The position numbers and the translations under genes were made by a program. The notes below the pieces were generated by a model that ran no database searches, was not told the origin of the DNA, and saw only the letters and a program-made list of their open reading frames with translations. Positions 35,719-49,095 of a DNA stretch of 64,000 bases are shown here, one piece after another. Each line of letters starts with the position of its first letter. Within the stretch, counting starts at the first letter, position 1. Location: sequence record OR983334.1; one strand, 5' to 3'. The stretch is from Escherichia phage 1-6bf.

Positions 35719-35754
35719 ATAAATTAATTTGCCAATCTTTTGGGAGTATAAATA

Positions 35755-36006
35755 ATGGCTATTAAAGAAGTTGAATTATCTAACGACTTTTCTTGTTTTG
35801 TTGGCGATACTGCTATCATGTTTAATACGCTTGATGGTCAGCTTATCGTGCCTATTATCACTTTTTGCAAAATGGATTTTCAGTCAGCTAAAAAATGGTT
35901 GAAATTTGCTGGCCTTGAAATTACCCGTGCTGATTTTCGTGACATCTATATCAAAGGTGATTTGTCACTGGCTAACCTGTTAAGTGAAAGATTGATACAT
36001 GACTAA
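35755..36006 (+). CDS. early hypothetical protein
   Basis: 83-aa ORF with GGGAG RBS. Confidence 0.5.
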   Translation: MAIKEVELSNDFSCFVGDTAIMFNTLDGQLIVPIITFCKMDFQSAKKWLKFAGLEITRADFRDIYIKGDLSLANLLSERLIHD

Positions 36007-36253
36007 AGAGCATAGCTTTACTATTCCGACTCACAATTATGGTGAGATTGATTTCTCATATACTGATGACTCTGACAAGTGTCTAATCTTGTTTATTGTC
36101 GGCGATAATATTAAGACGGTGAGCTTTCCCGCTGTTGCTTTGATCATGGATACCCTCCTAGCTGGTCAGTATTTGGCGCAACGTCGGATTCTCTTATCGC
36201 TGGAAGAAATCGAACTGCTCAGAGTAGCACTATTTAAGGGTAAAGGCAACTAA
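35999..36253 (+). CDS. early hypothetical protein
   Basis: 84-aa ORF overlapping stop of upstream gene. Confidence 0.45.
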   Translation: MTKEHSFTIPTHNYGEIDFSYTDDSDKCLILFIVGDNIKTVSFPAVALIMDTLLAGQYLAQRRILLSLEEIELLRVALFKGKGN

Positions 36254-36452
36254 TGATTCATGATTATTTTTGGCGTTGCTTGTTCGTTGTTACAGTGGCG
36301 TTATTCGTCGCTGACATGCTTTATTCTTACGTTCTTTAAGGTCTGTTGTGCTGTTTTTGTTTTTTGTTTGTCGTGGGCTTCATTTCTTTAAACTATTTAC
36401 TGATTGTTGCCGCTCTCGATTTGCTTAATCTCAATATTAAAGGTTAATTGCT

Positions 36453-36818
36453 ATGTGGTTTATTAAATTCGTCGTTAAAACGATTGTAGGCTTCTTCCTT
36501 GTCGTTCTCCTGTTAGGTGTCCTGCTGTCAGCTATGGGTAGCGTTAAGGCTGCAACGTTCTCCCCTGCTACGGTTGACGGTTTACAGTGCACCTATATTG
36601 TAGAAAACTATGACACTGGTAAAAAGTCACCTAAAGTTATTATTTTACATGTAAATGATTTCGATCATGTACAATCATATGATAAAACTATTCAACTGGT
36701 AAATGAAACCACTGGTAAGCAAATTACGGTCGATCACTTGATGCGCTCATCGTTGACGCTCTTTGATGAGTCTATGAATGAAATGGCATCCGGTAACGGT
36801 CAATGTGTAAATCCATAG
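36453..36818 (+). CDS. early membrane/secreted protein
   Basis: N-terminal TMD/signal (FVVKTIVGFFLVVLLLGVLLSAMG); AAAGG RBS. Confidence 0.5.
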   Translation: MWFIKFVVKTIVGFFLVVLLLGVLLSAMGSVKAATFSPATVDGLQCTYIVENYDTGKKSPKVIILHVNDFDHVQSYDKTIQLVNETTGKQITVDHLMRSSLTLFDESMNEMASGNGQCVNP

Positions 36819-36893
36819 GCTTAATCTTTCTTCTGTATTGTGCCGTAGTCATGCCTATGGTCATAATCTATCTGATTCTCTAATCCTTCCTGT

Positions 36894-36921
36894 AAGCCTC
36901 CTAGTGAGGCTTTTCTCTTTT
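36894..36921 (+). terminator. rho-independent terminator
   Basis: AAGCCTC-CTAGT-GAGGCTT hairpin + TTCTCTTTT. Confidence 0.5.
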
Positions 36922-37201
36922 ATGAGGTGAGTGTATGCCTTACTCCCTTTTAGCTCGTTGTGATGCGTTTTAGGCCGCTAAATATCGCTTTACAAGCCGT
37001 TTTCTATGATGTATCGCGTGCGCCTGCTCTTTTACCTTCCTATAGTGAAAAAGTTTAAAATAATTTGCTTTACCCTATTGCAATCTCATCTGATTAGCGT
37101 ATACTTCATTTCATCGGGTACGATGTAAAACATACAAGGCAAGAAATTGCCCCGCTCTTTAAAAATCAGGTTAGAAAGTGAAAATATTCTCAAAAAGAGT
37201 A

Positions 37202-37230
37202 TTGACACCGAAAACAGCCTGATATATAGT
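37202..37230 (+). promoter_or_regulatory. sigma70 consensus early promoter P2
   Basis: TTGACA-17 nt-TATAGT, A-rich UP-like tract upstream. Confidence 0.65.
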
Positions 37231-37649
37231 GAGCATAGTCAGCGATGACTTAAAAAATCCCGCTCTTTAAAAACTTATCATCTTGCCCTTTCGCATAGAT
37301 TCACGCGAGATAAGGGAAAGGAATTAAAAGAAGATGATAAAAAGAGTTGCAAACGTGGTTAAAGTAGTCCATACTAACCACAAGTTAGCAGATACACCGC
37401 TAACAAGTTCCCAAATCAACGTATCGCGGGAAAAGTGGCACATAGTGCAGCGAGTAGTTCGGGTGTAGGCGGCCCGTTAATGAATAAGTAAGCCTTAAAT
37501 GTGACAGTGATTAGCAGACACTCTAAAAGGCTAACGCTCTTTAACAATATGAATCATAAGTTAAGCATCACCGCTTAATCTTCAATCAAATAAAGCTGAT
37601 TGATATATCCTCCCAATAGCGGGAACGACGAAAAAAGATTAAAAAGCGG

Positions 37650-37678
37650 TTGACAGCGAAAACAACATGATTCATAAT
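37650..37678 (+). promoter_or_regulatory. sigma70 consensus early promoter P3
   Basis: TTGACA-17 nt-CATAAT, A-rich UP-like tract upstream. Confidence 0.65.
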
Positions 37679-38598
37679 GAGCATCACTTAAGCAAATCAC
37701 CGCTTAAGGAAAGCGTAACAACGGCTAACAGTTGCATAGTGTGAGAAAGCACACTGATAGATTTACCGCTCTTTAATAATTTAAACATTCTCCTATATCG
37801 GTTGAATATGCTGGATGATAATAACCATCGGAAAGCATACCAGATAAAACGGCGTAAAACTCCCTAAATTATCAGGGTAAACAGTTTTACATTCCCTTAC
37901 TGGAAACGTCACCACTGGTAAACGGATTCATTGAGTGCACGCAAAGGCTTAAGCTAATCGCCCACGGTTAAGGGTAGCGGCGGTCATCGCTAACAAGGCG
38001 CTACAGTGAAAGAAGTTAATCAGGGTAGGCAATCCCGACGAATTAACGCCCAATTGAGGGCGGCGGGGAGTGGTTAAAAGTGGCAAATTGCTATTTAACA
38101 ATAAGGTTTAGTGTGAACGTTTACGATGTGAACGGCTTGAGATTCATCTTATGATGAAAGTACATAGTCGGGTAATGTAGTAAACTCGCTGAAAGATATA
38201 AAACGTCGGAATATTAGGCGGTTAGTGACTCTTTCGCAATAGTATCCCGTAGTGGGCGATGACTAGCGATAGAGAGCTGATATAAAAGGATAGGCGAGAG
38301 CGAAAGCAAAGTGGACGATATTGCCGACGGTTACAATAATGTAACTAATTAGAGTCGGACACACAGCCTTATTGTGATGATTGATCATCGCTATCAGGTC
38401 GGCTTCGTTTATAGCGACTAATTAAAGATACCAGATGAAACATCACGGATAAGGGGGCGGCAAGGTTAACTCCTGATAAGACCGCCCCGCTTACCTATAA
38501 CTACTTAACAACGAGTGGTTATAGTTAAGTTAATAGTGACTTAAACAAGCTCATAGAGAGCGGGGCAATAGCGCCCTTACAATTGAAAGGTGAATATC

Positions 38599-39498
38599 AT
38601 GGCTAAAATCTTTACTCTGGTTAACGAATCCGGTTTTAATGCTCTGGCTAACAACATTCGCAGTAATAACGCGGCGATCAAACAAGATGTTTCTAACTTC
38701 CTGTTAGGGCACTTACAGCACTTCCGCAGTAATGGTAAGAAGCTGGACGTATTGCAGGCGGCGGTTGACTTCTTGTTAACTGAACGTTTCCGTGATATGG
38801 ATGTTATTGCCACTGCAATTACTTTCTTAACTCCTATCAAGTTTAACACTGATGCGGCAAACGGTCGTAAAAAGTGGATTAATCTGGAAGGTGAAGCGAA
38901 AGCGAAAGAAGATGCGAAAGAAGCGCAAATTAAGGCCAAAATGGAACAAAATCGAGCTCGCTGGTCAAATGCTTTCGAAAATTTTGCCCTCGGTCGTGAA
39001 ATTGAAGTCGATAACCCTAACTTTTACAAGGGTTGCAATGACAACGTAGCGGCACACCTGCAAATACCTGCGAAAAACAAGGAAGATTTTAATCAGGATA
39101 TTTACGCTTTAGTTGAACGCTTGAATGCAATCCGTATCGAAGCCAAATTGCTGGCTGATGAGCGCAACGGCGCTACTAGCGATAATACTATCGCCTTAAG
39201 TGAAGAAGTCGGCAAGGTTAAAAAGTCTTTCGACTCACTCATCAAGAAAGTAACGGCCTCAACGGTAGCGATCTCCGATGACTATCTGATGAACGCATCA
39301 AGCAAGGAATTAGAATCCCTCGATTCATACGCTGATGAAATGGAAAAGACTATCGCAGCTATGCAGGAGAAGTTAGAAGGACTGCGCAGTCGTATCTCTT
39401 CAACGGTTGCTACCCGTACCGAACAAGCGGCGAAAGCAGAAGAGGAAGAAGTATTGCGTAAAGCGGCTGAAATTATGGCGGCACGCCAAGCGGCATAA
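38599..39498 (+). CDS. early protein, alpha-helical/coiled-coil
   Basis: 299 codons, AAAGG RBS, followed by terminator. Confidence 0.6.
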   Translation: MAKIFTLVNESGFNALANNIRSNNAAIKQDVSNFLLGHLQHFRSNGKKLDVLQAAVDFLLTERFRDMDVIATAITFLTPIKFNTDAANGRKKWINLEGEAKAKEDAKEAQIKAKMEQNRARWSNAFENFALGREIEVDNPNFYKGCNDNVAAHLQIPAKNKEDFNQDIYALVERLNAIRIEAKLLADERNGATSDNTIALSEEVGKVKKSFDSLIKKVTASTVAISDDYLMNASSKELESLDSYADEMEKTIAAMQEKLEGLRSRISSTVATRTEQAAKAEEEEVLRKAAEIMAARQAA

Positions 39499-39828: not shown

Positions 39829-40049
39829 TATTCAGTAGCAATTTTGGTAAGTGTCCTATTTGTGAGAAACATCGCAGCACGGGAAACCATCGCAAATGTA
39901 GTAAGATATTACAGCGCCAACGTGATGACAATCATTGGGATACTGTACACGCTAATCAGCGTAAAGAAGAAGTTAGAAAAATGGCTGTTAAAGCGTCCTT
40001 TGCTCAATCCACCCGTATTGAACACATCCAAAGGTATCAAGCATTATGA
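39825..40049 (+). CDS. hypothetical Cys/His-containing small protein
   Basis: 74-aa ORF, CPICEKH ... HRKC pattern. Confidence 0.45.
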   Translation: MIFSSNFGKCPICEKHRSTGNHRKCSKILQRQRDDNHWDTVHANQRKEEVRKMAVKASFAQSTRIEHIQRYQAL

Positions 40050-40255
40050 TCACTAATATTTCAGAGTTTAAGAAAGCTCCCTCCCGACTGTTAGGTCGTC
40101 GTGTTGTATATCTTTACAGCAACAAAGGTAAATGCACAACCGGACGAATTACAACGGTGAGTAGTGCCAATAAGAAACTACTAAAGTTGTGTGTAACTAT
40201 GGATGACGGTACAATCCTTCTACGTAGTTGGAAATCGTTTAGTTTACTTGATTAA
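40046..40255 (+). CDS. hypothetical protein
   Basis: 69-aa ORF with ATGA overlap. Confidence 0.45.
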   Translation: MITNISEFKKAPSRLLGRRVVYLYSNKGKCTTGRITTVSSANKKLLKLCVTMDDGTILLRSWKSFSLLD

Positions 40256-40994: not shown

Positions 40995-41018
40995 AGCCGC
41001 CTTTGAGCGGCTTTTTGC
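40995..41018 (+). terminator. rho-independent terminator (first of tandem pair)
   Basis: AGCCGC-CTTTGA-GCGGCT + TTTTT. Confidence 0.5.
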
Positions 41019-41079
41019 GTTGCTGTAAGTGCATTTGCGAGTGTATTTATAGCAACGGTCATGTGTTGCTTTCAGGTTT

Positions 41080-41106
41080 GCCCCGGCTACGGCTGGGGCT
41101 TTTTTA
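41080..41106 (+). terminator. rho-independent terminator (second of tandem pair)
   Basis: GCCCCGGC-TACG-GCTGGGGC + TTTTTTAT. Confidence 0.6.
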
Positions 41107-41154
41107 TGCCCGTAAAACAGGAGGTAGCAAGTTCTGATAACAACGGCCCAGCTA

Positions 41155-41544
41155 ATGTTGACATTGACTATTTATTATGAGGCAGGGAATCAGCCAACCG
41201 CATGTAAGGCTTTAGTTGCGGATACCGTGATAAATAGAATGGCCCAACGAAAACTGACCGCTGAACAGGTGATAAGACAAAAGAACCAGTTTGAGTGGAT
41301 TCCGGTACTATTAAAACAGGAGAAACCTTATAAACGTTATGTAAAGCTGATTCGTGATAAAAATCCGATGACTAAACAAGCCATTGGAGAAAGCGAGCGG
41401 TTAGCTAAACGTGCCCTTAAGAAGAATTATGTTCCTCTGTATAGTGGGACTTACTTTCAGAGTAAGAGCGAAGGGGTGCCAAAATGGTATGCCAATCCTA
41501 TGTATTGTGGTGATTTAGTGTTCGATAATAGCTCTAGGGAATAA
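41155..41544 (+). CDS. SleB/CwlJ-like cell-wall hydrolase domain protein
   Basis: TIYYEAGNQPTACKALVADTVINRMA and C-terminal YFQSK ... CGDLVFDN resemble the Hydrolase_2 fold; no close RBS. Confidence 0.4.
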   Translation: MLTLTIYYEAGNQPTACKALVADTVINRMAQRKLTAEQVIRQKNQFEWIPVLLKQEKPYKRYVKLIRDKNPMTKQAIGESERLAKRALKKNYVPLYSGTYFQSKSEGVPKWYANPMYCGDLVFDNSSRE

Positions 41545-41743
41545 TCACTAGTGCCAGATTTGACAAACTAAATTCCTTTATAAACCAACCACTTAGTAAA
41601 TTTATTGAAAAAGATGGCAGTATTCTGGAACTATGGGTAATGCTCTGTATATAGACCCTTTGAAAATTTCTTAGAAAATAAGTTTACTAAATATAACTTA
41701 CTTAAATAATATTACTTTTAATCTCTGATAAAGGGTAAATAAT

Positions 41744-42040
41744 ATGACTTTAGAAGTATATAAATTCCTTTTTGTAAGCTGTTTAACTATCAGCGTTCTA
41801 GGATTTATTATTCTCAGAAACAAAGCAGCAAGCTGGGAGAGAATGTATAAATCCCTAGTTCGAGTGGATGAGATGTATAATGAGAAAGTTAAAGTAACAC
41901 TTAACGATCTTATTATGCAAGTAGAGGACAGAAACAAGCGTCTTCAGAACCTCAACAATGAAGTATTACGCCTTGCTCGTGCTAATGAAGACTTGCGAGT
42001 AGCTATTGCTAAGCAGCAGGAGATTAACAATGAAGCATGA
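41744..42040 (+). CDS. membrane protein with coiled-coil
   Basis: N-terminal TMD (FLFVSCLTISVLGFIIL) then heptad-like region. Confidence 0.5.
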   Translation: MTLEVYKFLFVSCLTISVLGFIILRNKAASWERMYKSLVRVDEMYNEKVKVTLNDLIMQVEDRNKRLQNLNNEVLRLARANEDLRVAIAKQQEINNEA

Positions 42041-42287
42041 TATTAATACAGCCCCTGTAGTCAAGCAGCTGAAAGATCTGAAGGTGGGAAGTGTTTTTGA
42101 AACTGTGCCACCTAAAAATAAATTATATCTTACAGTAAAGCTAGATTCCTCAACCGTTTATTCAGCTAGTTGGAAGTCTGATGAAAGGGTAGTAGTAGAT
42201 CTCACTTCGGATAGAATAACAATGTTGAGAAAAGATACTGTTGTTCAGGTAGTTGATAATGCTCGACTTACCAATAAGGTGGATTAA
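42030..42287 (+). CDS. small early protein, paralog family 1 (member A)
   Basis: shares MK ... L..G.VF ... Y ... TG pattern with 7 other ORFs; AGGAG RBS. Confidence 0.5.
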   Translation: MKHDINTAPVVKQLKDLKVGSVFETVPPKNKLYLTVKLDSSTVYSASWKSDERVVVDLTSDRITMLRKDTVVQVVDNARLTNKVD

Positions 42288-42289
42288 AG

Positions 42290-42526
42290 ATGAAAGTTAA
42301 TATTAAATCCGATCGTACAATGCTTCGCTTAAATAACATGAAGCCGGGGGTTCTGTTTGAGTCTAAAGGGTTCTTTTACATTAGAACTGACAGTCTATAC
42401 GCAGAAAATTATGTGAACTGTGTTGATGTGGTAACTGGAAAGCTCATTCCTATTAAACGAGATGAAGTCTGCCAAGTACGCAGTGATCTCCACATAACCA
42501 ATATAGAGGCTAAAGATGAAGATTAA
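42290..42526 (+). CDS. small early protein, paralog family 1 (member B)
   Basis: same family pattern (MKPGVLFESKGFFYIRTD). Confidence 0.5.
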   Translation: MKVNIKSDRTMLRLNNMKPGVLFESKGFFYIRTDSLYAENYVNCVDVVTGKLIPIKRDEVCQVRSDLHITNIEAKDED

Positions 42527-42773
42527 TCTTGAAGTAAAGGAACCGTCTTTGTGTGTTGGTGATCTCAAACTTGGAGATGTATTCCAAATCAGGGAAACAC
42601 GAACAGATTTCTACATGGTTGTTCAGCTATTTACCCCACAGATTGAAGAGACCAAGCCTTCTGATGGTGGTTGTGTCGTCCTCAGTCTGACAAATAAGCA
42701 AGTCCTTAAGCTTAGATCGAAAAGCAAGGTTGTTCTTCTTCATGATGTTATTATTACCAACAAGGGTAAGTAG
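42516..42773 (+). CDS. small early protein, paralog family 1 (member C)
   Basis: same family pattern (LKLGDVFQIRETRTDFYMVV). Confidence 0.5.
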   Translation: MKINLEVKEPSLCVGDLKLGDVFQIRETRTDFYMVVQLFTPQIEETKPSDGGCVVLSLTNKQVLKLRSKSKVVLLHDVIITNKGK

Positions 42774-42992
42774 ATGGAAATTAAAGTAGTTGAGACTCCT
42801 AAATATGCAAATGTGGAAGATCTTAAAGGGGGAGATGTTTTCTCTTATGATCAAAAATTCTGGCTGATGCTAGATGATGATCTCTCTAATGGACTACGCA
42901 GGGCTGCCAATCTAAGCACTGGTTATGTTGGTAATTTCAATCCATCAACCACTGTTATGCCTCGCCCTGATTTGTATTTGACTCAAAAGTAA
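42774..42992 (+). CDS. small early protein, paralog family 1 (member D)
   Basis: same family pattern (LKGGDVFSYDQKFWLML). Confidence 0.5.
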   Translation: MEIKVVETPKYANVEDLKGGDVFSYDQKFWLMLDDDLSNGLRRAANLSTGYVGNFNPSTTVMPRPDLYLTQK

Positions 42993-43003
42993 CACCGACT
43001 TAT

Positions 43004-43120
43004 AGCCCTTGTGTTTATCAGAGGGCTATGTGAGGGTGTTCCTCATTAACTTATTAATTCAGGCATATGCCACACCGCTAGGGAGAGCTTGCTCGAACAT
43101 CCGGTGCTAGACTAAAACCT
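43004..43120 (+). repeat. conserved intergenic element, copy 1 (hairpin + GCTAGGGAGAG ... CTCGAACATCCG)
   Basis: TATAGCCCTT-loop-AGGGCTATGTGAG hairpin then GCTAGGGAGAG-N-CTCGAACATCCG; second copy at 48962-49095. Confidence 0.4.
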
Positions 43121-43350
43121 GTTAATTTTCGAAAGACTTTCTGATATGTAGGGGTACGTATTAGTTTGGGATTCAGGAGACTTCCTAGGGGTAGGGAGTC
43201 TTCACCAGTTGGAATAAGAGATAGCTCTAGAACCTGAACTCTTAGGCAGAGAAGGTCGGCAATGAGTACGCGGTCAGGATTAGTCTACTGACTAGGGCTA
43301 TTCCTTATATCAACTGGCAATAATGCCTCCACTAACAAAGAGAGATAGGT

Positions 43351-43491
43351 ATGAAAGTATCAACCAAACGTATGAACCGCCCTGAACGTATGGATGCAGT
43401 AGCTAACGGTGCTCTGAAACTGGAAGGCTTTTGGATTCATGCAATGTCAGCCATTCGTAACAAGCAAGGTGGTTGGACGTATAACAGTTAA
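43351..43491 (+). CDS. small hypothetical protein
   Basis: 46-codon ORF followed immediately by a strong terminator. Confidence 0.3.
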   Translation: MKVSTKRMNRPERMDAVANGALKLEGFWIHAMSAIRNKQGGWTYNS

Positions 43492-43500
43492 TAAATAAAA

Positions 43501-43529
43501 GGCTGCCTTCGGGCGGCCTTTGTTGTTTT
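43501..43529 (+). terminator. rho-independent terminator
   Basis: GGCTGCC-TTCG-GGCGGCC + TTTGTTGTTTT. Confidence 0.6.
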
Positions 43530-43572
43530 AATTAAGGGACAACTCTTACTTAAACTAACAAGAGGTGCTTAT

Positions 43573-43917
43573 ATGAGACGCATGGTTAAAGATTGGGTCA
43601 CTAAATCAGGTCTTCGTGCTGTGATTATGCACATGAACGACTCCCATTTTTGTGGATATGTAGAGCTACCAGACAGCTTAAAACATAAAAACTTCACCGG
43701 ATATAACGGAAAGGAAAAGGTTTGTTATGTAAGTGTTCATGGTGGTGTCACATGGCAAGACACCCTTGAAGAGATGGGTGGTTTAAATACAATCGGATTT
43801 GATTGTGCCCATGCAGGTGATAAGACACGGTTCAACCCTAACGGGGTTCCAAGAACAGAAGCTTTCTGCATCAACGAATGCGAACAAATGGCTGAACAAC
43901 TGAGAGATCTTGAATAA
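43573..43917 (+). CDS. hypothetical protein
   Basis: 114 aa, AGAGG RBS. Confidence 0.5.
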   Translation: MRRMVKDWVTKSGLRAVIMHMNDSHFCGYVELPDSLKHKNFTGYNGKEKVCYVSVHGGVTWQDTLEEMGGLNTIGFDCAHAGDKTRFNPNGVPRTEAFCINECEQMAEQLRDLE

Positions 43918-43918
43918 A

Positions 43919-44095
43919 ATGTCTAAGCAAACAATAAAACATACGCAAGCTGGTTACTCTTATGTCAACTCCCCTTGCTGCGGTGCTCGTATTAATCTGG
44001 TTAAGGAAGAGGTTCGTATCGTTCAGCGTGGCGCTACTGTTGTTCGTTCATGCTGTGTCTGTGGTAATGATATTTTTATCAAAGGTAAAGTATGA
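43919..44095 (+). CDS. small zinc-ribbon protein
   Basis: CC-GARINL ... CCVCG four-Cys pattern. Confidence 0.4.
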   Translation: MSKQTIKHTQAGYSYVNSPCCGARINLVKEEVRIVQRGATVVRSCCVCGNDIFIKGKV

Positions 44096-44343
44096 AAAAC
44101 TTTCAAGCTGCACCAATCACTAAAGTGATCGAAGTTGACGGTGTGATGATGACTGTTCCTCTGAACACTCGTTACATTGCAATTGACAAGATGGGTTATG
44201 TATGGGCTTGGAAGATTAAGCCTAGCTATAACGCATTGTTTGATGAGTTTGTTTGCACTGGTACGTACAGTCCTACATTCTTGGGTTTGTTTAGTGAGTT
44301 TGATGGTCAGTATAAAATCATCACTCTCCCTGCTTGTGCTTGA
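44092..44343 (+). CDS. hypothetical protein
   Basis: 83-aa ORF with ATGA overlap. Confidence 0.45.
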   Translation: MKNFQAAPITKVIEVDGVMMTVPLNTRYIAIDKMGYVWAWKIKPSYNALFDEFVCTGTYSPTFLGLFSEFDGQYKIITLPACA

Positions 44344-44350
44344 GGTTAAT

Positions 44351-44512
44351 ATGTTCAAGTGGCTAAAGCGTGTCTTTCATTGTCATGATTGGAAGATTAT
44401 TAATACTCGCCCTCTGGTCTATACAGATTCAGATGGGAATAACGACAAGGGCACACGTTACGTTATTCAGTGTAAGGTGTGTGGTGATGTTAGTCATCGT
44501 GATGTAATCTAA
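44351..44512 (+). CDS. small His/Cys protein, paralog family 2 (member 1)
   Basis: MFKWLKRVFHCHDW ... CKVCG; two similar ORFs follow in tandem. Confidence 0.4.
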   Translation: MFKWLKRVFHCHDWKIINTRPLVYTDSDGNNDKGTRYVIQCKVCGDVSHRDVI

Positions 44513-44521
44513 GGAATCATT

Positions 44522-44686
44522 ATGATCAAATGGTTCAAACGCTTCTTTCATTTCCATGAGTGGGAAGATCTTCATACTTATGAACTGACGATCACAAATA
44601 AACTTACTGACAGAGAGCGACAAGGGTTGCGTATCTACTCTCGCTGTAAAGTGTGTGGTCTGCACAAGAAAACAGATCTGATCTAA
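44522..44686 (+). CDS. small His/Cys protein, paralog family 2 (member 2)
   Basis: MIKWFKRFFHFHEW ... CKVCG. Confidence 0.4.
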   Translation: MIKWFKRFFHFHEWEDLHTYELTITNKLTDRERQGLRIYSRCKVCGLHKKTDLI

Positions 44687-44694
44687 GGGGTGTT

Positions 44695-44904
44695 ATGTTC
44701 TTTCGTAAGAAAAAGCCCGAAGATTCTGGATGTAAACACGAGTGGGTGATCACTGAGAACCTACATATCACCCACGCTAAAGACACTCCGGTCGAGAGAA
44801 AAGAATCTCGTGTATCTCGTATCTGTAAACACTGTTTGAAAATAGAACAGCATAAAGTTCCCGGTCATATTGGTCACGATGTAGCCATTCGTATCTTTAG
44901 TTAA
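44695..44904 (+). CDS. small His/Cys protein, paralog family 2 (member 3)
   Basis: CKHEW ... ICKHC, same spacing of H/C residues. Confidence 0.4.
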   Translation: MFFRKKKPEDSGCKHEWVITENLHITHAKDTPVERKESRVSRICKHCLKIEQHKVPGHIGHDVAIRIFS

Positions 44905-44927
44905 ACAAATCTAGCACCCTTAGCTCA

Positions 44928-45368
44928 ATGGAGGTGGTATTGAAAATAGAGTTGGAATACCCCTTCATCAATGACTGGAGGTTGGGGTATTTAAGGACAA
45001 GTAAGGATGGGAGGAGGCGTGTTGACCTATTCAATTCTAACACAGATAGGACTACGATCTCTTATGCAAGGTATTTAATGTCTTGCCATGTAGGGAGGTA
45101 TCTTACTGCGGAGGAAGAGGTAGATCATGTTGATCAAAATCCAACCAATGATGAGATATCTAACCTTCAGATTCTAAGCACAAATGATCACCTAAAGAAG
45201 ACCTTAGAGAACAGACCTAAGGGTGTGGTCATTACTTTGATTTGTAGTAATTGTGGCACATCTTTTGAGAGAAGGGGTAACAAGGTCCACAAAGAAAACC
45301 AAAACCATTTTTGTAGTAGGTCTTGCAACGGTAAGTATTACTGGAGCAAGGGTTTCAATAATAAATAA
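44928..45368 (+). CDS. HNH homing endonuclease
   Basis: SYARYLM ... HVGRYLTAEEEVDHVDQNPTNDEISNLQIL plus C-terminal zinc finger; abuts tRNA-like element. Confidence 0.7.
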   Translation: MEVVLKIELEYPFINDWRLGYLRTSKDGRRRVDLFNSNTDRTTISYARYLMSCHVGRYLTAEEEVDHVDQNPTNDEISNLQILSTNDHLKKTLENRPKGVVITLICSNCGTSFERRGNKVHKENQNHFCSRSCNGKYYWSKGFNNK

Positions 45369-45379
45369 GAGCTTCTAGC

Positions 45380-45458
45380 GAGGATGTATCTTCCCCGCCT
45401 TCTAAGCGGTCGTTAAAGAAGTAATTGGAGTATGCAGGTTCGAACCCTGTCATCCTCG
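45380..45458 (+). tRNA. tRNA-like element (possible tRNA-Arg UCU; cloverleaf not fully resolved by hand)
   Basis: perfect 7-bp acceptor stem (GAGGATG/CATCCTC), T-arm GCAGG-TTCGAAC-CCTGT, hairpin with loop CTTCTAA; D-arm non-canonical in my fold; no encoded CCA. Confidence 0.35.
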
Positions 45459-45481
45459 CTAGAGGCTCTTGGAGGTGTGTT

Positions 45482-45763
45482 ATGTCATGGGGTGGTGTAA
45501 TATCCTTAATCTGTATCTTCCTTGTCTGCATAGCCCTTACAGGCTGCGTACAGAGCCGTCCTGATGGATGGTGTGCAGTAGCAGTGGAAGGTGTTTGTGT
45601 TTCTCGCTGGCACAAAGGTGAGAAGGTTCCTTCTGGTGAAATTGATATGCGTTACAGTGGTATCTCATGCCTGAACGGTGCAGCAGTAGATGAGGAAACT
45701 AAAACCTTGTCAGATGCACAGTGGTGTGGTGGTTCTGTAACAACAACCGGTAAGGAGTGGTAA
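45482..45763 (+). CDS. lipoprotein (superinfection-exclusion candidate)
   Basis: GGAGG RBS; signal peptide MSWGGVISLICIFLVCIALTGC with lipobox LTGC; Cys-rich mature part. Confidence 0.55.
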   Translation: MSWGGVISLICIFLVCIALTGCVQSRPDGWCAVAVEGVCVSRWHKGEKVPSGEIDMRYSGISCLNGAAVDEETKTLSDAQWCGGSVTTTGKEW

Positions 45764-45764
45764 T

Positions 45765-46013
45765 ATGACAGCTCATTATTGGAATACAAAGAAGCTTCTT
45801 GAAGAGATGGCTGGAGGTAGTAGGGTACAGCTAATCTCCATGCTTCGAATGGATGCTCGCTCCTTACGCTTCCAAGTAAAGATTGGTAACTTCAGTGATG
45901 GCCTTTATTACACGCTGAAGGAAAGGATCAAGAAGACTCACTTCATCATGTACGGAATCAAACCGAGAACGTACGTTAACTACATGTATTGGAATACATG
46001 CTACGATAATTGA
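45765..46013 (+). CDS. hypothetical protein
   Basis: AAGGAG RBS. Confidence 0.5.
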   Translation: MTAHYWNTKKLLEEMAGGSRVQLISMLRMDARSLRFQVKIGNFSDGLYYTLKERIKKTHFIMYGIKPRTYVNYMYWNTCYDN

Positions 46014-46020
46014 GGTTATT

Positions 46021-46242
46021 ATGAAACTAGACTCTAAGCAGTCACTTAAAACCGCTGAACTGTCCACGCTGCCAAACGGAAGTATCTTTGGTCATGATAA
46101 ACACTTCTGGATTAAAACAGACATCATAGACGATGGGTATATTACCTGTGTCAACCTTTGGAATGGTTCAGTGGATGGTTATCGCCCTAGCGCAAAGGTA
46201 GTCCCTCAGCCCGATGCAAAGGCTATAGGTTTAGTTTACTAA
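46021..46242 (+). CDS. small early protein, paralog family 1 (member E)
   Basis: LPNGSIFGHDKHFWIKTD family pattern. Confidence 0.5.
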   Translation: MKLDSKQSLKTAELSTLPNGSIFGHDKHFWIKTDIIDDGYITCVNLWNGSVDGYRPSAKVVPQPDAKAIGLVY

Positions 46243-46251
46243 GGAGCCTGT

Positions 46252-46425
46252 ATGAGTTGTTTTGGTGGCGGTGAAGTAGATGACGATGATGACATGGAAT
46301 CAAACGGCACATGTCCTGATTGTGGGTGTGAGACATGGGATGGGGTTTCTGTCTACCCTGCCTGTAGTTATTCACCAGTAATTTGTAAAACATGCGGTGA
46401 TCAGCCGTGTGACCAGTCTTGCTAA
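46252..46425 (+). CDS. small Cys-rich protein
   Basis: 57 codons, AAGGAG RBS, 9 Cys (CPDCGC ... CKTCGDQPCDQSC). Confidence 0.4.
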   Translation: MSCFGGGEVDDDDDMESNGTCPDCGCETWDGVSVYPACSYSPVICKTCGDQPCDQSC

Positions 46426-47040
46426 GAGAATATTATGACTGAAGAATTTTTAAAGTGGTTTGGTGATACCTTCAAAGAGTATCTATTCTCTCCAGAAGAC
46501 TTTGAAGAACTGAAAACCTACACTTGGTTGGCTTGGAGAGATAGCCGACGAGAGATGAATAAGTAATATCGTGAAGGATTCTTACGAGAGTCCTTTGAGA
46601 TAGGACTTCAGATCTCCTATCAAACTAACATTCATGTAACTAGCCCATAAGGGCGTTACCCTTTAATAACCCAGCCCACTAAGGGGGCGGGAGTTTAGTG
46701 CTGGATTAGCATAACGCTTATTCCTACAAAGGCAACCGATTGTTAGATCTTACATGCAATACTAATTAATAGGATAAGGGAGGATTCGTCCCCTCCCCCT
46801 ATTTATAAATTATCAGGAGAGTACTCTAGCTGATTAGCTGTAGAAGGGAGGCCGATATCTACGGCGTGGCCCAGAGCTAGTGTACTCTCCTGATGAGGCA
46901 CCTCCTCATCGTGGTAAGCTGTGGAATAATCTTTACAGCAGTTACTTGAAGTAGCCTGTACGGCCCTCAGCAAAGAGTCCGGACGATATCTGAGTGACTT
47001 TAAAAACAGATGGAGCCAGGTGGAATCCCTGGCAATTAGT

Positions 47041-47186
47041 TACAGGTATAGCTTATGAGGCTCACTAATGCAGAGCCTACGGTAAAGCAGTCGCCCGTGG
47101 TCAAATGACCGTATGCCCATTGGATGCATTCCTTTGGTGATGGCTAGGGAGTCCGAGCGTAGGTTCGAATCCTACACCTGTAACCA
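47041..47186 (+). tRNA. tRNA-like element with encoded CCA (146 nt between acceptor halves; intron, long insert or tRNA-like RNA)
   Basis: T-arm GTAGG-TTCGAAT-CCTAC, acceptor 3' ACCTGTA + A + CCA; only perfect 5' partner TACAGGT lies at 47041. Confidence 0.35.
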
Positions 47187-47214
47187 AATCGAATAATATC
47201 TAATTGGAGGATGT

Positions 47215-47526
47215 ATGAAAGCACGAAGAACTATATGGACTCCGATGCAGATTGAAAATCTTCGGAGACTAATCAAAGAGTACTCGGTTAAAGAAGTTGC
47301 TCAGATTATGAATGTAACGGAGAATGCAGTTAATACAGCTTGCACTAAATTCGGAATATCAAGAGCTTCAATCCGAGTTAAATGGTCTGAAGAAGAAGAC
47401 CAGTTCCTTATCCGTAATGCTGGGTTCATGTCTATTCAGAGAATGGCTGACATGCTCGGTAGAAGCTATGCTGCTGTACAGAACAGGGCATGTATGCACC
47501 TTAATATTAGCCTCAAACTTAAATAG
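47215..47526 (+). CDS. tandem helix-turn-helix DNA-binding protein
   Basis: GGAGG RBS; two similar units (W.P..IENLRRLI ... SVKEVAQIM and W.EEEDQFLI ... SIQRMADML). Confidence 0.5.
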   Translation: MKARRTIWTPMQIENLRRLIKEYSVKEVAQIMNVTENAVNTACTKFGISRASIRVKWSEEEDQFLIRNAGFMSIQRMADMLGRSYAAVQNRACMHLNISLKLK

Positions 47527-47534
47527 GAATCAAT

Positions 47535-47783
47535 ATGAAGATTACTCACAAGAAAGAAGAAGTGACCACGGTTGATATCAACTCCCTTCCCAGCGGAGCA
47601 GTATTTAAATTCCCTGAGAGTGCTACTCTCTATGTTAAAGGGTCTGTGTCTGAAAGTCCTAATGTAACCGTTAACTCTGATCGAGCAATTACCCTTCGTT
47701 TATCCGATGGTAACGTAACAGCACCTTCTATCTGGTGCCGAGTTGTTCCTGTGTCAGCAGAACTTTTGGTGGATAACACATAA
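47535..47783 (+). CDS. small early protein, paralog family 1 (member F)
   Basis: LPSGAVFKFPESATLYV family pattern. Confidence 0.5.
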   Translation: MKITHKKEEVTTVDINSLPSGAVFKFPESATLYVKGSVSESPNVTVNSDRAITLRLSDGNVTAPSIWCRVVPVSAELLVDNT

Positions 47784-48028
47784 TGAAGATCCTTCCCAAG
47801 ATTAAAGATAAAACTGTTTCACTGGATACAATTATTCCCGGAAACCCTTTCGTAATCCAACAAGGTTTAGCATCGCCTCAGTATTATATGCGAGTTACCA
47901 ATGTATCCAATAAGATCTCTGTCGAAGAAGGTTGGATTACTACAGTTAATCTTATGACTGGTGTTCTGGGTGTTATGAAAAGTGATACTCAGGTTGAAAT
48001 GATTCGTATGTCAGTGGTTCAGGAGTAA
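47783..48028 (+). CDS. small early protein, paralog family 1 (member G)
   Basis: IPGNPFVIQQG ... YYMRV family pattern. Confidence 0.5.
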   Translation: MKILPKIKDKTVSLDTIIPGNPFVIQQGLASPQYYMRVTNVSNKISVEEGWITTVNLMTGVLGVMKSDTQVEMIRMSVVQE

Positions 48029-48030
48029 TT

Positions 48031-48279
48031 ATGAGCACTATTCATATTAAAGTTAAGAGCAAAGAGGAAACAGTCCTCCGTGTTAAAGATCTAAACATGT
48101 CAGATGTGTTCACTCTCCAAGAGTGCCATCTTCAAAAGATTTACATGCTGACAGCTAAGAGCATAGGTTGTCAACCTGCTGGAGCTGTTAACTTAGGAAC
48201 TGGAGAAGTTCGTCCTGTGTCTGGAGATATGGTTGTTGGTGAGAAGTTTATTAAGGCTGAGATTATTTTAACTTCATAG
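48031..48279 (+). CDS. small early protein, paralog family 1 (member H)
   Basis: LNMSDVFTLQECHLQKIYML family pattern. Confidence 0.5.
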   Translation: MSTIHIKVKSKEETVLRVKDLNMSDVFTLQECHLQKIYMLTAKSIGCQPAGAVNLGTGEVRPVSGDMVVGEKFIKAEIILTS

Positions 48280-48286
48280 GTGATCT

Positions 48287-48499
48287 ATGACTCAAGAAGA
48301 GAAAGATATACTCATCCAGAATGCATACCTACTGTTCTCCTCTGAGGAAGTATTGTTCAACCAACTTTCTAAGTTGTGGAAAGTGTCTGAGGAAGAAGCT
48401 AAAGAGAAGTTTTATTCTGACATAACAGAAGATTACAAATCTTTTCTTGGTGAGGTGCTGAGAGATCGGCATGTGTATCTAAGTAACTACGCCTGTTAA
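48287..48499 (+). CDS. hypothetical protein
   Basis: 70-aa ORF. Confidence 0.45.
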   Translation: MTQEEKDILIQNAYLLFSSEEVLFNQLSKLWKVSEEEAKEKFYSDITEDYKSFLGEVLRDRHVYLSNYAC

Positions 48500-48733
48500 T
48501 AGGAAAACAAATGAGACGTAAAGCATATTCTTATGACGATATGATTAACCAGAAAGGCTTCGGTCAACGACAGCCTGATGGTTCAATTATCTGGTTCGTA
48601 AATGGACAGAAAAAGGTAGCTAAATAAGCCTTCTTCTCTCCTCCTTTTAGTACTATGACGCCTCTCTGTGGGCGGCCCAATTTGCGTAGGGAATTCCCTC
48701 TACGCAGCCATGACTTTTTAAGGAATTTCCCCT

Positions 48734-48967
48734 ATGTCTAAAGTAAGCGCAATTGATGCAATCCGTCAACCATTCCAGTTCCAATCTAAATCAACCCAAA
48801 CCTTCAGTGAGCCTAAGCAAATTCGCTTGGGCGGCACAGAGAAGACTGTGTTTGATCTGGCTAAAAACAAGAGCGTTACTGTAGTTGAAGGTGGCACTCT
48901 GGTTAACGTTTCACACCGCATCCGCACTGGCAAGACTGCCAAAGACCGTGCTAAGAAAGGCGAGTAA
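48734..48967 (+). CDS. hypothetical protein
   Basis: AAGGA RBS; 77 aa. Confidence 0.5.
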   Translation: MSKVSAIDAIRQPFQFQSKSTQTFSEPKQIRLGGTEKTVFDLAKNKSVTVVEGGTLVNVSHRIRTGKTAKDRAKKGE

Positions 48968-49095
48968 CACCTATAGCCTTCTTCGGAGGGCTATGTGAGT
49001 TATTCTGACTCAACTAACCTAATCTTAATATATTTCCCGTATGGGGCCGATGCTAGGGAGAGGAACATTCCTCGAACATCCGTCGGATAGATATT
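48962..49095 (+). repeat. conserved intergenic element, copy 2
   Basis: TATAGCCTT-loop-GAGGGCTATGTGAG hairpin then GCTAGGGAGAG-N-CTCGAACATCCG, matching 43004-43120. Confidence 0.4.

Follow-up and report, generated by a model that had tools for sequence, protein, structure and literature searches.

A family of eight small early-region genes in a phiEco32-like coliphage, with a predicted SH3/KOW-like barrel fold and a possible role in host interaction

Introduction

Most of the proteins known to let phages take over their host or counter its defences have come from expanding, diversifying families of small early genes, and most of these families are unnamed. Here we describe a family of eight small genes from Escherichia phage 1-6bf (sequence record OR983334.1), designated A1 to A4, S and B1 to B3 in the order of the map (Table 1). 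The whole stretch of 64,000 nucleotides that was analysed is referred to as the window. [quoted passage not shown] The variant GoF(D25Y) stabilises an mRNA, whereas wild-type GoF and MotB.1 showed no RNA effect (PMC12152347). A second point of reference is gp21 of phage N4, an uncharacterised protein of 74 amino acids (aa) from the left-arm region of the N4 genome.

The phages most closely related to 1-6bf provide further background. In phiEco32, the early gene cluster starts with four sigma70 early promoters, and for phage 7-11, a relative, an as-yet-undefined antitermination strategy has been proposed that would act on its long early transcripts (PMC8948821). Members of the Gordonclarkvirinae show unusual resistance to restriction-modification without carrying a known inhibitor, according to the BASEL report (PMC11990801). 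The eight genes of 1-6bf first emerged from an annotation based on the letters of the window and the translations of its open reading frames (ORFs), which we call the original prediction. It described an expanded family of small early proteins in tandem arrays, shaped by diversifying selection and typical of host-takeover or anti-defence functions.

Eight related genes

Pairwise phmmer comparisons and leave-one-out hidden Markov models (HMMs) were run against all 389 ORFs of at least 40 aa in the window. The pair A4-S scored an expectation value (E) of 5e-10, followed by A1-A3 (1e-5), A2-S (5e-4) and S-B1 (5e-3); the links of B2 and B3 are weaker. HMMs built without the member in question recovered A1 at E 7e-8, A2 at 5e-8, A3 at 5e-9, A4 at 3e-8, S at 5e-10, B1 at 2e-4, B2 at 6e-7 and B3 at 2e-7, and no ORF from outside the family scored below E 0.03. 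When the sequences were shuffled with their composition preserved, none of 500 shuffles per omitted member reached the real score (z between 7.1 for B1 and 16 for A1). Profiles built from the orthologs of each subfamily link all eight genes at E 4e-4 or better (S-B1 3e-5, A3-B3 5e-5), and the independent PHROG models also cross-match between members. Leave-one-out models, shuffles and subfamily profiles thus agree with the original prediction that these genes are real paralogs: the HMMs find their own members, and the similarity exceeds that of composition. The alternative, that short lysine-rich ORFs with an M-K-I start resemble each other by chance or composition, can draw on the fact that several pairwise comparisons (B2 or B3 against most others) are not significant singly and that the proposed motif is not literal in every member, but is already refuted on sequence grounds by the leave-one-out values (2e-4 to 5e-10), by the shuffles and by PHROG cross-matches, which extend to distant metagenomic members that each match several of the same PHROGs. 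A candidate ninth member, the ORF at 40046-40255 (E 0.05 against A1), was rejected; it scores E 2.8 against the full-family HMM and belongs to a separate family, phrog_14815.

The eight ORFs are all present on the + strand at the predicted starts, and their arrangement as an array of four, an isolated copy and an array of three is as first described. The reported length of 72-93 aa needs adjustment: counted from ATG the proteins have 72-85 residues, and 93 aa corresponds to a TTG-extended ORF of A1 that starts at 42006. The proposed common motif holds approximately. An MK(I/V/L/H) start is found in six of the eight, the exceptions being A4 (MEI) and B3 (MSTIHIKV). The glycine of L-x-x-G-x-V-F is a serine in B3, the V-F pair reads L-F, I-F or P-F in three members, and the downstream T-G is literal in four. 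All genes begin with ATG preceded by a Shine-Dalgarno-like motif 5-10 nucleotides upstream. The genes within the arrays are separated by -11, -1, 0 or +2 nucleotides. Such junctions fit translational coupling, and translation within each array is probably coupled. Since the closest pairs (A4-S and A1-A3) are not adjacent and no DNA-level repeat between members exceeds the ~20 nucleotides seen at some start codons, the arrays are not recent tandem duplicates. The proteins have isoelectric points (pI) of 4.8-9.3 and net charges of -2 to +3. In a near-identical deposited genome all eight are annotated as "hypothetical protein".

Table 1. The eight family genes and candidate promoters in the window
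Feature	Coordinates	Strand	Length (aa)	Best PHROG	Remarks
A1	42030-42287	+	85	phrog_9955	Shine-Dalgarno motif GGAG
A2	42290-42526	+	78	phrog_16423 (1e-47)	
A3	42516-42773	+	85	phrog_9955	11-nucleotide overlap with A2
A4	42774-42992	+	72	phrog_6570	closest paralog is S, not the array neighbours
S	46021-46242	+	73		isolated copy; hub of the similarity network; member with structure model
B1	47535-47783	+	82	phrog_7832	weakest-linked member; cross-match to 6570
B2	47783-48028	+	81	phrog_7431	
B3	48031-48279	+	82	phrog_12612	atypical N-terminus MSTIHIKV; S for conserved G
Candidate sigma70-type promoters	37202 and 37650 (span 37202..37678)	+			TTGACA-17-TATAGT (37202) and TTGACA-17-CATAAT (37650); 11/12 consensus each

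Predicted fold and conservation

Structure prediction had been named as a check in the original prediction and was performed on S. An AlphaFold2 model based on a pooled alignment of 128 sequences reached a mean predicted local distance difference test (pLDDT) score of 83.8, with values above 90 for residues 11-60. The model consists of five beta strands with disordered termini; the only helix recognised by DSSP is a three-residue turn at 14-16. This supports assignment of S to the small SH3/KOW-like barrels. The other members would share this fold by homology. Foldseek returned domain I of EF-P/eIF5A as the best of the nearest solved folds, together with the C-terminal domain of uL2 (uL2-C), Spt5 KOW and Tudor domains, and SH3 domains of the FeoA/DtxR type (FeoA 3e19; IdeR 4o6j, 5zr4 and 7b1v). 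None of the Foldseek matches of the S model reaches E 1e-3, and a profile search of PDB sequences gave nothing below E 0.3. The predicted fold of S has no close solved relative.

Conservation was scored column by column across 142 diverse sequences. The strongly conserved hydrophobic positions are, in S numbering, I3, L14, L17, V22, F23, Y30, M31, V44, L46 and V60, accompanied by the turn glycines G20 and G49. Polar positions are semi-conserved only at K2, D21, K32, N45 and T48, and neither a conserved polar cluster nor a catalytic-looking constellation was found in this set. The most variable element of the phage proteins is the loop between strands beta2 and beta3, which spans 5-25 residues. 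A pattern of this kind marks a scaffold whose surface is left free, unlike that of an enzyme, of a uniformly acidic DNA mimic or of a uniformly basic nucleic-acid binder.

Distribution and database status

An HMM search of phage databases, likewise suggested in the original prediction, found the family far beyond the window. A word-indexed search returned 120 clusters, all of them on contigs of ~76-79 kb and all within the same eight subfamilies. An exhaustive HMM search of 1.8 billion representative proteins gave 635 clusters at E <= 1e-3, most of which are 70-87 aa long. Most clusters carry the landmarks MKI, L-x-x-G-D-V-F, Y-M-K, V-N-L-x-T-G and V-x-P-V and a hydrophobic C-terminal strand. 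Over its full length, every window member matches one PHROG profile (E 1e-13 to 1e-47), with additional cross-matches to others. The PHROGs concerned are 6570, 7431, 7832, 8365, 9955, 12612 and 16423 (also 34455), all labelled "unknown function"; phrog_8365 is not the best match of any window member. Ten distant members match between four and eight of these PHROGs each. Because distant members match several of them at once, the profiles place at least seven PHROGs in one superfamily.

The family also includes domains of cellular enzymes. The Tenacibaculum protein P0127, an SprT-like (PF10263) metalloprotease, has the domain repeated five times behind its protease part, with 19-26 bits for each repeat; its family-profile score corresponds to E 1e-9 against 1.8 billion proteins. 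Thirteen further SprT-like proteins from Bacteroidota carry one to three copies of the barrel domain. A word-indexed search with a single SprT repeat found nothing, whereas a query with the full-length protein succeeded.

Other resources returned little. Pfam (at E up to 1), NCBIfam and PADLOC gave no match to any member, and no functional name for any member was found in the databases or sources searched. Searches by tblastn with distant members or the HMM consensus recovered hardly anything from phages and nothing from plasmids; this barrel family lies beyond the sensitivity of BLAST. Fold matches in BFVD are uncharacterised proteins of small size; the phages that encode them infect Escherichia, Klebsiella, Proteus, Erwinia, Pseudomonas, Yersinia, Vibrio and Morganella.

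The genes of distant members lie in one-directional runs of small ORFans on contigs of up to 194-275 kb with a guanine-plus-cytosine (GC) content of 29-61%. On one unrelated contig, a fused doublet comes after two single-domain genes; there are several further doublets of this kind. The distant member P0131 (metagenomic contigs L014 and L015) is surrounded by one-directional small genes that include DUF932, DUF4313, a cREC_REC protein and a reverse transcriptase. This neighbourhood suggests an establishment region of a conjugative element or phage-plasmid, and not a typical virulent phage. Two recovered proteins, P0121 (3353 aa with 20 weak repeats) and P0128 (RCC1-like repeats), were left unused, as they likely accumulated weak matches to the G-D-x-F strand.

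In several records, family genes or adjoining genes of 70-100 aa bear implausible enzyme names. Examples are the "endolysin" gp111 of IMEP8 (L012, 7752-7985), the "two-domain glycosyltransferase" NJ01_132 (L008, 1479-1697) and, from EcoN5, the "DNA helicase" P0106 and the "Endolysin" of BFVD entry A0A7L4XW47. The 98-aa ORF upstream of A1 is likewise called "DNA helicase" in relatives. These names are almost certainly errors of annotation transfer.

Phage affiliation and early position

By megablast, positions 41000-49000 of the window match Escherichia phage 1-6af along their full length at 99.9% identity; many other coliphages are 90-93% identical across 72-80% of the length. With S as the query, tblastn found matches in phiEco32, NJ01, KBNP1711, SU10, 172-1, ES17 and Paul, and the taxonomy of the matching phage records is Gordonclarkvirinae/Kuravirus. 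These comparisons assign the window to a phiEco32-like Kuravirus. An assignment to the N4/G7C-like phages, raised by matches to a few Gamaleyavirus records, was rejected in view of the tblastn matches of S and this taxonomy. From ~38.6 kb onwards, the + strand of the window has, up to its end, the direction of the early and then middle genes of phiEco32, and large structural genes occupy the - strand at 4.9-33.8 kb.

Synteny identifies the phiEco32 orthologs of the eight genes as gp115-113, gp104 and gp98/97-95, which places them within the early cluster, as the original prediction had it. With respect to transcription, they are located upstream of gene 68, a position that marks them as early.

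Two sigma70-type promoter candidates, the best matches of the region, precede the cluster (Table 1) and may drive the family; in a consensus scan, the total number of such matches in the region is not above chance. Both lie in a stretch of ~2.9 kb (35719-38589) that is free of ORFs of at least 150 aa and precedes the first early gene (38590-39498). This stretch probably represents the region of the early promoters; it might also be the genome end or a terminal-repeat area. The gp36-type promoter consensus TAATGTATA was also considered near the arrays and rejected: no exact copy lies on the + strand there, the occurrences have one mismatch and chance frequency, and exact copies are confined to the - strand of the structural region.

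Variation among related phages

The number of copies that the family HMM detects in the early region differs from phage to phage: 8 in 1-6bf, Bas91 and SR02, 9 in phiEco32, 11 in EP335, at least 10 in NJ01, 10 in Ptacy1479, 7 in IMEP8 and at least 6 in a Salmonella relative. The window lacks some subfamilies, among them a divergent 84-aa paralog located ahead of B1/B2, by which B1 is replaced or joined in some relatives. A2, A3, A4, S, B2 and B3 are kept in all seven genomes compared, whereas A1 is accessory, with a copy of at least 60% identity in only ~21 phage records.

Sequence divergence is equally pronounced. Across seven relatives, the mean amino-acid identity is 69% for the eight family genes and 90% for 30 other genes of the same region (Mann-Whitney p = 1.7e-4). 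Some genes fall into allele classes (A3 at 87-90% or 54-59%; B3 at 83-85% or 54-57%), and the orthologs of S are 95, 93, 78, 78, 56, 41 and 37% identical. B2 occurs in essentially all of ~75 related records, 49 of which carry it at only 60-80% identity, and forms 55 clusters at 90% identity. These comparisons mark the eight genes as clear divergence hot-spots of the early region in the genus. Expansion and diversification, with 7-11 copies among relatives, are thus borne out.

The diversifying selection invoked in the original prediction is not. The Nei-Gojobori ratio of nonsynonymous to synonymous divergence (dN/dS), taken gene-wide, is below 1 in all 49 ortholog pairs, with a median of 0.22 for the family as compared to 0.08 for neighbouring genes. 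The mean dS is raised as well (0.85 versus 0.42). Since dS is doubled too and dN/dS stays below 1, we read the excess diversity as the mark of real genes under purifying selection with a roughly three-fold relaxed constraint, and with alleles that appear older than the genomic backbone. Such old alleles may reflect recombinational exchange of cassettes or long-maintained allele lineages.

Proposed role and alternatives

How might such proteins work? The reading that we find best supported, and put forward tentatively, is that they are small binding modules whose conserved barrel exposes a variable loop and surface, through which they contact different protein partners in the infected cell, and that the repertoire of modules is reshuffled among related phages. 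Host sigma70 RNA polymerase would transcribe the genes early, within one or more long early operons, and their products would be stand-alone, single-domain, five-stranded SH3/KOW-like barrels of ~8-9 kDa. The core of the barrel would act as a conserved scaffold, and variation would be tolerated on the surface, in the N-terminal arm and most of all in the beta2-beta3 loop. This loop probably carries the specificity. Each paralog would dock on a different partner and inhibit or redirect it; host housekeeping factors, components of defence systems or proteins of competing phages may serve as such partners. Recombination between co-infecting relatives would then reshuffle the repertoire, giving rise to 7-11 copies per genome and to discrete allele classes. 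We infer protein binding, the identity of the targets and an anti-defence or takeover effect; judged from their context, the family members are plausible candidates for host-interaction or anti-defence proteins. The resistance of this phage group to restriction-modification makes an anti-defence role attractive, and is not evidence for these particular genes.

Several considerations weigh against this proposal. The barrel was modelled for one member, and a prediction for B1 from B1 orthologs alone was uninformative (pLDDT 41). The early timing of the eight genes is deduced from their position and a secondary source. A raised dS combined with a gene-wide dN/dS below 1 does not amount to evidence of an arms race. 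The wild-type function of the T4 early proteins GoF and MotB.1, which are dispensable in the laboratory, is unknown (PMC12152347). Finally, SH3-like barrels of this class bind nucleic acids at least as often (KOW, LSm, uL2, EF-P), and the basic beta2-beta3 loop of the SprT-like domain suggests nucleic-acid binding.

The last two points lead to the main rival explanation, which we consider somewhat unlikely. The proteins could be nucleic-acid-binding regulators, that is, barrels similar to LSm, KOW or cold-shock domains that act on phage or host RNA (stability, translation or antitermination) or on DNA, with each paralog recognising a different target. The nearest solved folds of the S model are indeed associated with RNA or the ribosome. 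In further support, the homologous SprT-like domain, present in one to five copies, has a K-(K/R)-R-T-R-Y loop. Against it, the phage members lack this basic sequence, and the loop is their most variable part; Pfam models of KOW, LSM and CSD find no match at E up to 1, no basic or exposed aromatic signature is conserved, and the net charges and pI values of the members vary from one to the next. The stabilisation of an mRNA by GoF(D25Y) in the analogous T4 family (PMC12152347) also points towards RNA, but wild-type GoF and MotB.1 lack this effect. The antitermination proposed for the early transcripts of phage 7-11 (PMC8948821) is a further argument for regulators of this kind.

It is unlikely, in our judgement, that the genes are largely dispensable accessory ORFans of weak or redundant function, kept by translational coupling and recombinational hitch-hiking. 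Their diversity would then reflect relaxed constraint and not specific interactions. A dN/dS about three times that of the neighbours would be expected from such genes, as would the free gain and loss of copies, the restriction of A1 to a minority of relatives and the lack of a laboratory phenotype for the T4 analogues. Yet every pair has a dN/dS far below 1, including those with dS above 1. The core and the glycines are conserved across 635 clusters from elements with GC contents of 29-61%, and six of the eight genes are retained in every genome compared.

The proposal of protein-binding modules has a bolder form, which we judge decidedly improbable as it stands. The family would be a pan-phage set of free-standing SH3-like barrels that share ancestry with the module by which bacterial SprT-like proteases recognise substrates or nucleic acids, and its amplification in Kuravirus-like phages to 7-11 exchangeable copies would have created a combinatorial repertoire of proteins that inhibit host immunity. 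If true, such a repertoire would explain the resistance of these phages to restriction-modification and to most of the defence systems tested, for which no inhibitor is known. The eight 8-kDa proteins, together with their natural allele series, make a cheap and concrete list of targets for interaction and defence-inhibition screens, and the unexplained restriction resistance of the group makes it an apt setting for them. Should no phenotype emerge, the family would document how a phage scaffold can be widespread and yet dispensable.

Neighbouring features

Some features close to the arrays deserve mention. Directly 3' of array A lies an ORF-free stretch of 358 nucleotides (42993-43350). Behind the orthologous gene, phiEco32 (L003, 6764-7121), EP335 and SR02 have a gap of equal size. 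In the window the gap ends near a terminator-like hairpin (43498-43521) and matches no Rfam family. A second gap, of ~650 nucleotides without an annotated gene (46567-47214), separates the S cluster from a gene for a "D5-like transcriptional regulator" (47215-47526) that precedes array B. It contains a terminator-like hairpin (46778-46797), and relatives carry an extra small ORF there (e.g., phiEco32 gp100). Just past array B, a 70-aa ORF (48287-48499, + strand) is annotated in 1-6af and has no counterpart in the seven relatives compared; this ORF resembles a strain-specific insertion at the boundary of the array.

Rfam detected no RNA family in the gaps flanking the arrays except one tRNA-like element (45380-45458, + strand), which scores 29.7 bits against the tRNA model (gathering score 29). 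ARAGORN reports no tRNA in the whole window. Relatives have a tRNA-Arg at this position. The element directly follows a 146-aa ORF (44928-45368) with 67% identity to a "homing endonuclease" gene of Bas91. The tRNA may be altered or degenerate.

A second family of tandem paralogs is encoded on the + strand at 44351-44512, 44522-44686 and 44695-44904 (53, 54 and 69 aa). Its members have an H-x-W ... C-K-x-C layout and a common DNA repeat of 58 nucleotides with 72% identity. Identity between the first two is 39% (E 8e-13); the third is more weakly related (E 1e-3). Among relatives, the first two ORFs show 39-98% identity and are hypervariable like the eight-gene family.

Comparison with known systems

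The T4 proteins (GoF, MotB.1, Frd.2) resemble the S model in their five-stranded antiparallel barrel and in their SH3 neighbours of the FeoA/IdeR type (PMC12152347). They have an additional linker and a C-terminal domain, whereas the window members, at 72-85 aa, are nearly all barrel; their genes are scattered, and those of the window stand in arrays. Profile comparison by hhalign gives no indication of homology (probability 0.7% for GoF and 0.2% for MotB.1), and the family HMM found no member in positions 1-100,000 of T4.

Other barrels and inhibitors are more distant. Sm, LSm and Hfq proteins carry an alpha-helix at the N-terminus, followed by the Sm1 and Sm2 motifs, and match the Pfam LSM or Hfq models; the S model has no such helix, and the members give no such match at E up to 1. 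The barrels of EF-P/eIF5A domain I, KOW, Tudor and FeoA/DtxR share only the fold, with 5-20% sequence identity, and the KOW (Pfam PF00467) and EFP_N models match none of the members. DNA mimics of the Ocr/ArdA type are strongly acidic (pI ~4 or lower), unlike the members described here.

Two systems are closer. N4 gp21 is itself a member of the family (hhalign probability 98.4%, E 9e-15; HMM E 5e-18). It agrees with the window proteins in length and in the landmarks MK-, G-x-x-F, YYMK, VNLxTG and V-x-PV, and a BFVD comparison shows a similar fold (E 1.7e-4, template-modelling score 0.76). It differs in being the sole copy within the first 20 kb of N4, a phage of the family Schitoviridae. The C-terminal repeats of the SprT-like proteases share L-x-x-G-x-x-F, aromatic-K, C/V-x-L, Y-L-F and the final V with the phage proteins. 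They are chromosomal (P0127 adjoins genes of the SusC/SusD type and LpxK) and fused to an enzyme, whereas the window proteins stand alone; and their beta2-beta3 loop contains the conserved basic K-(K/R)-R-T-R-Y sequence, in contrast to the variable, non-basic loop of the phage members.

The family itself was already present in PHROGs, where the same subfamilies are kept separate and unnamed, and small early phage proteins built on a simple barrel are a known class of expanded families with rapid turnover. What we add is modestly new: a single SH3-like barrel superfamily of 635 or more clusters that unites at least seven PHROGs with N4 gp21 and shares homology with the repeat domain of SprT-like proteases.

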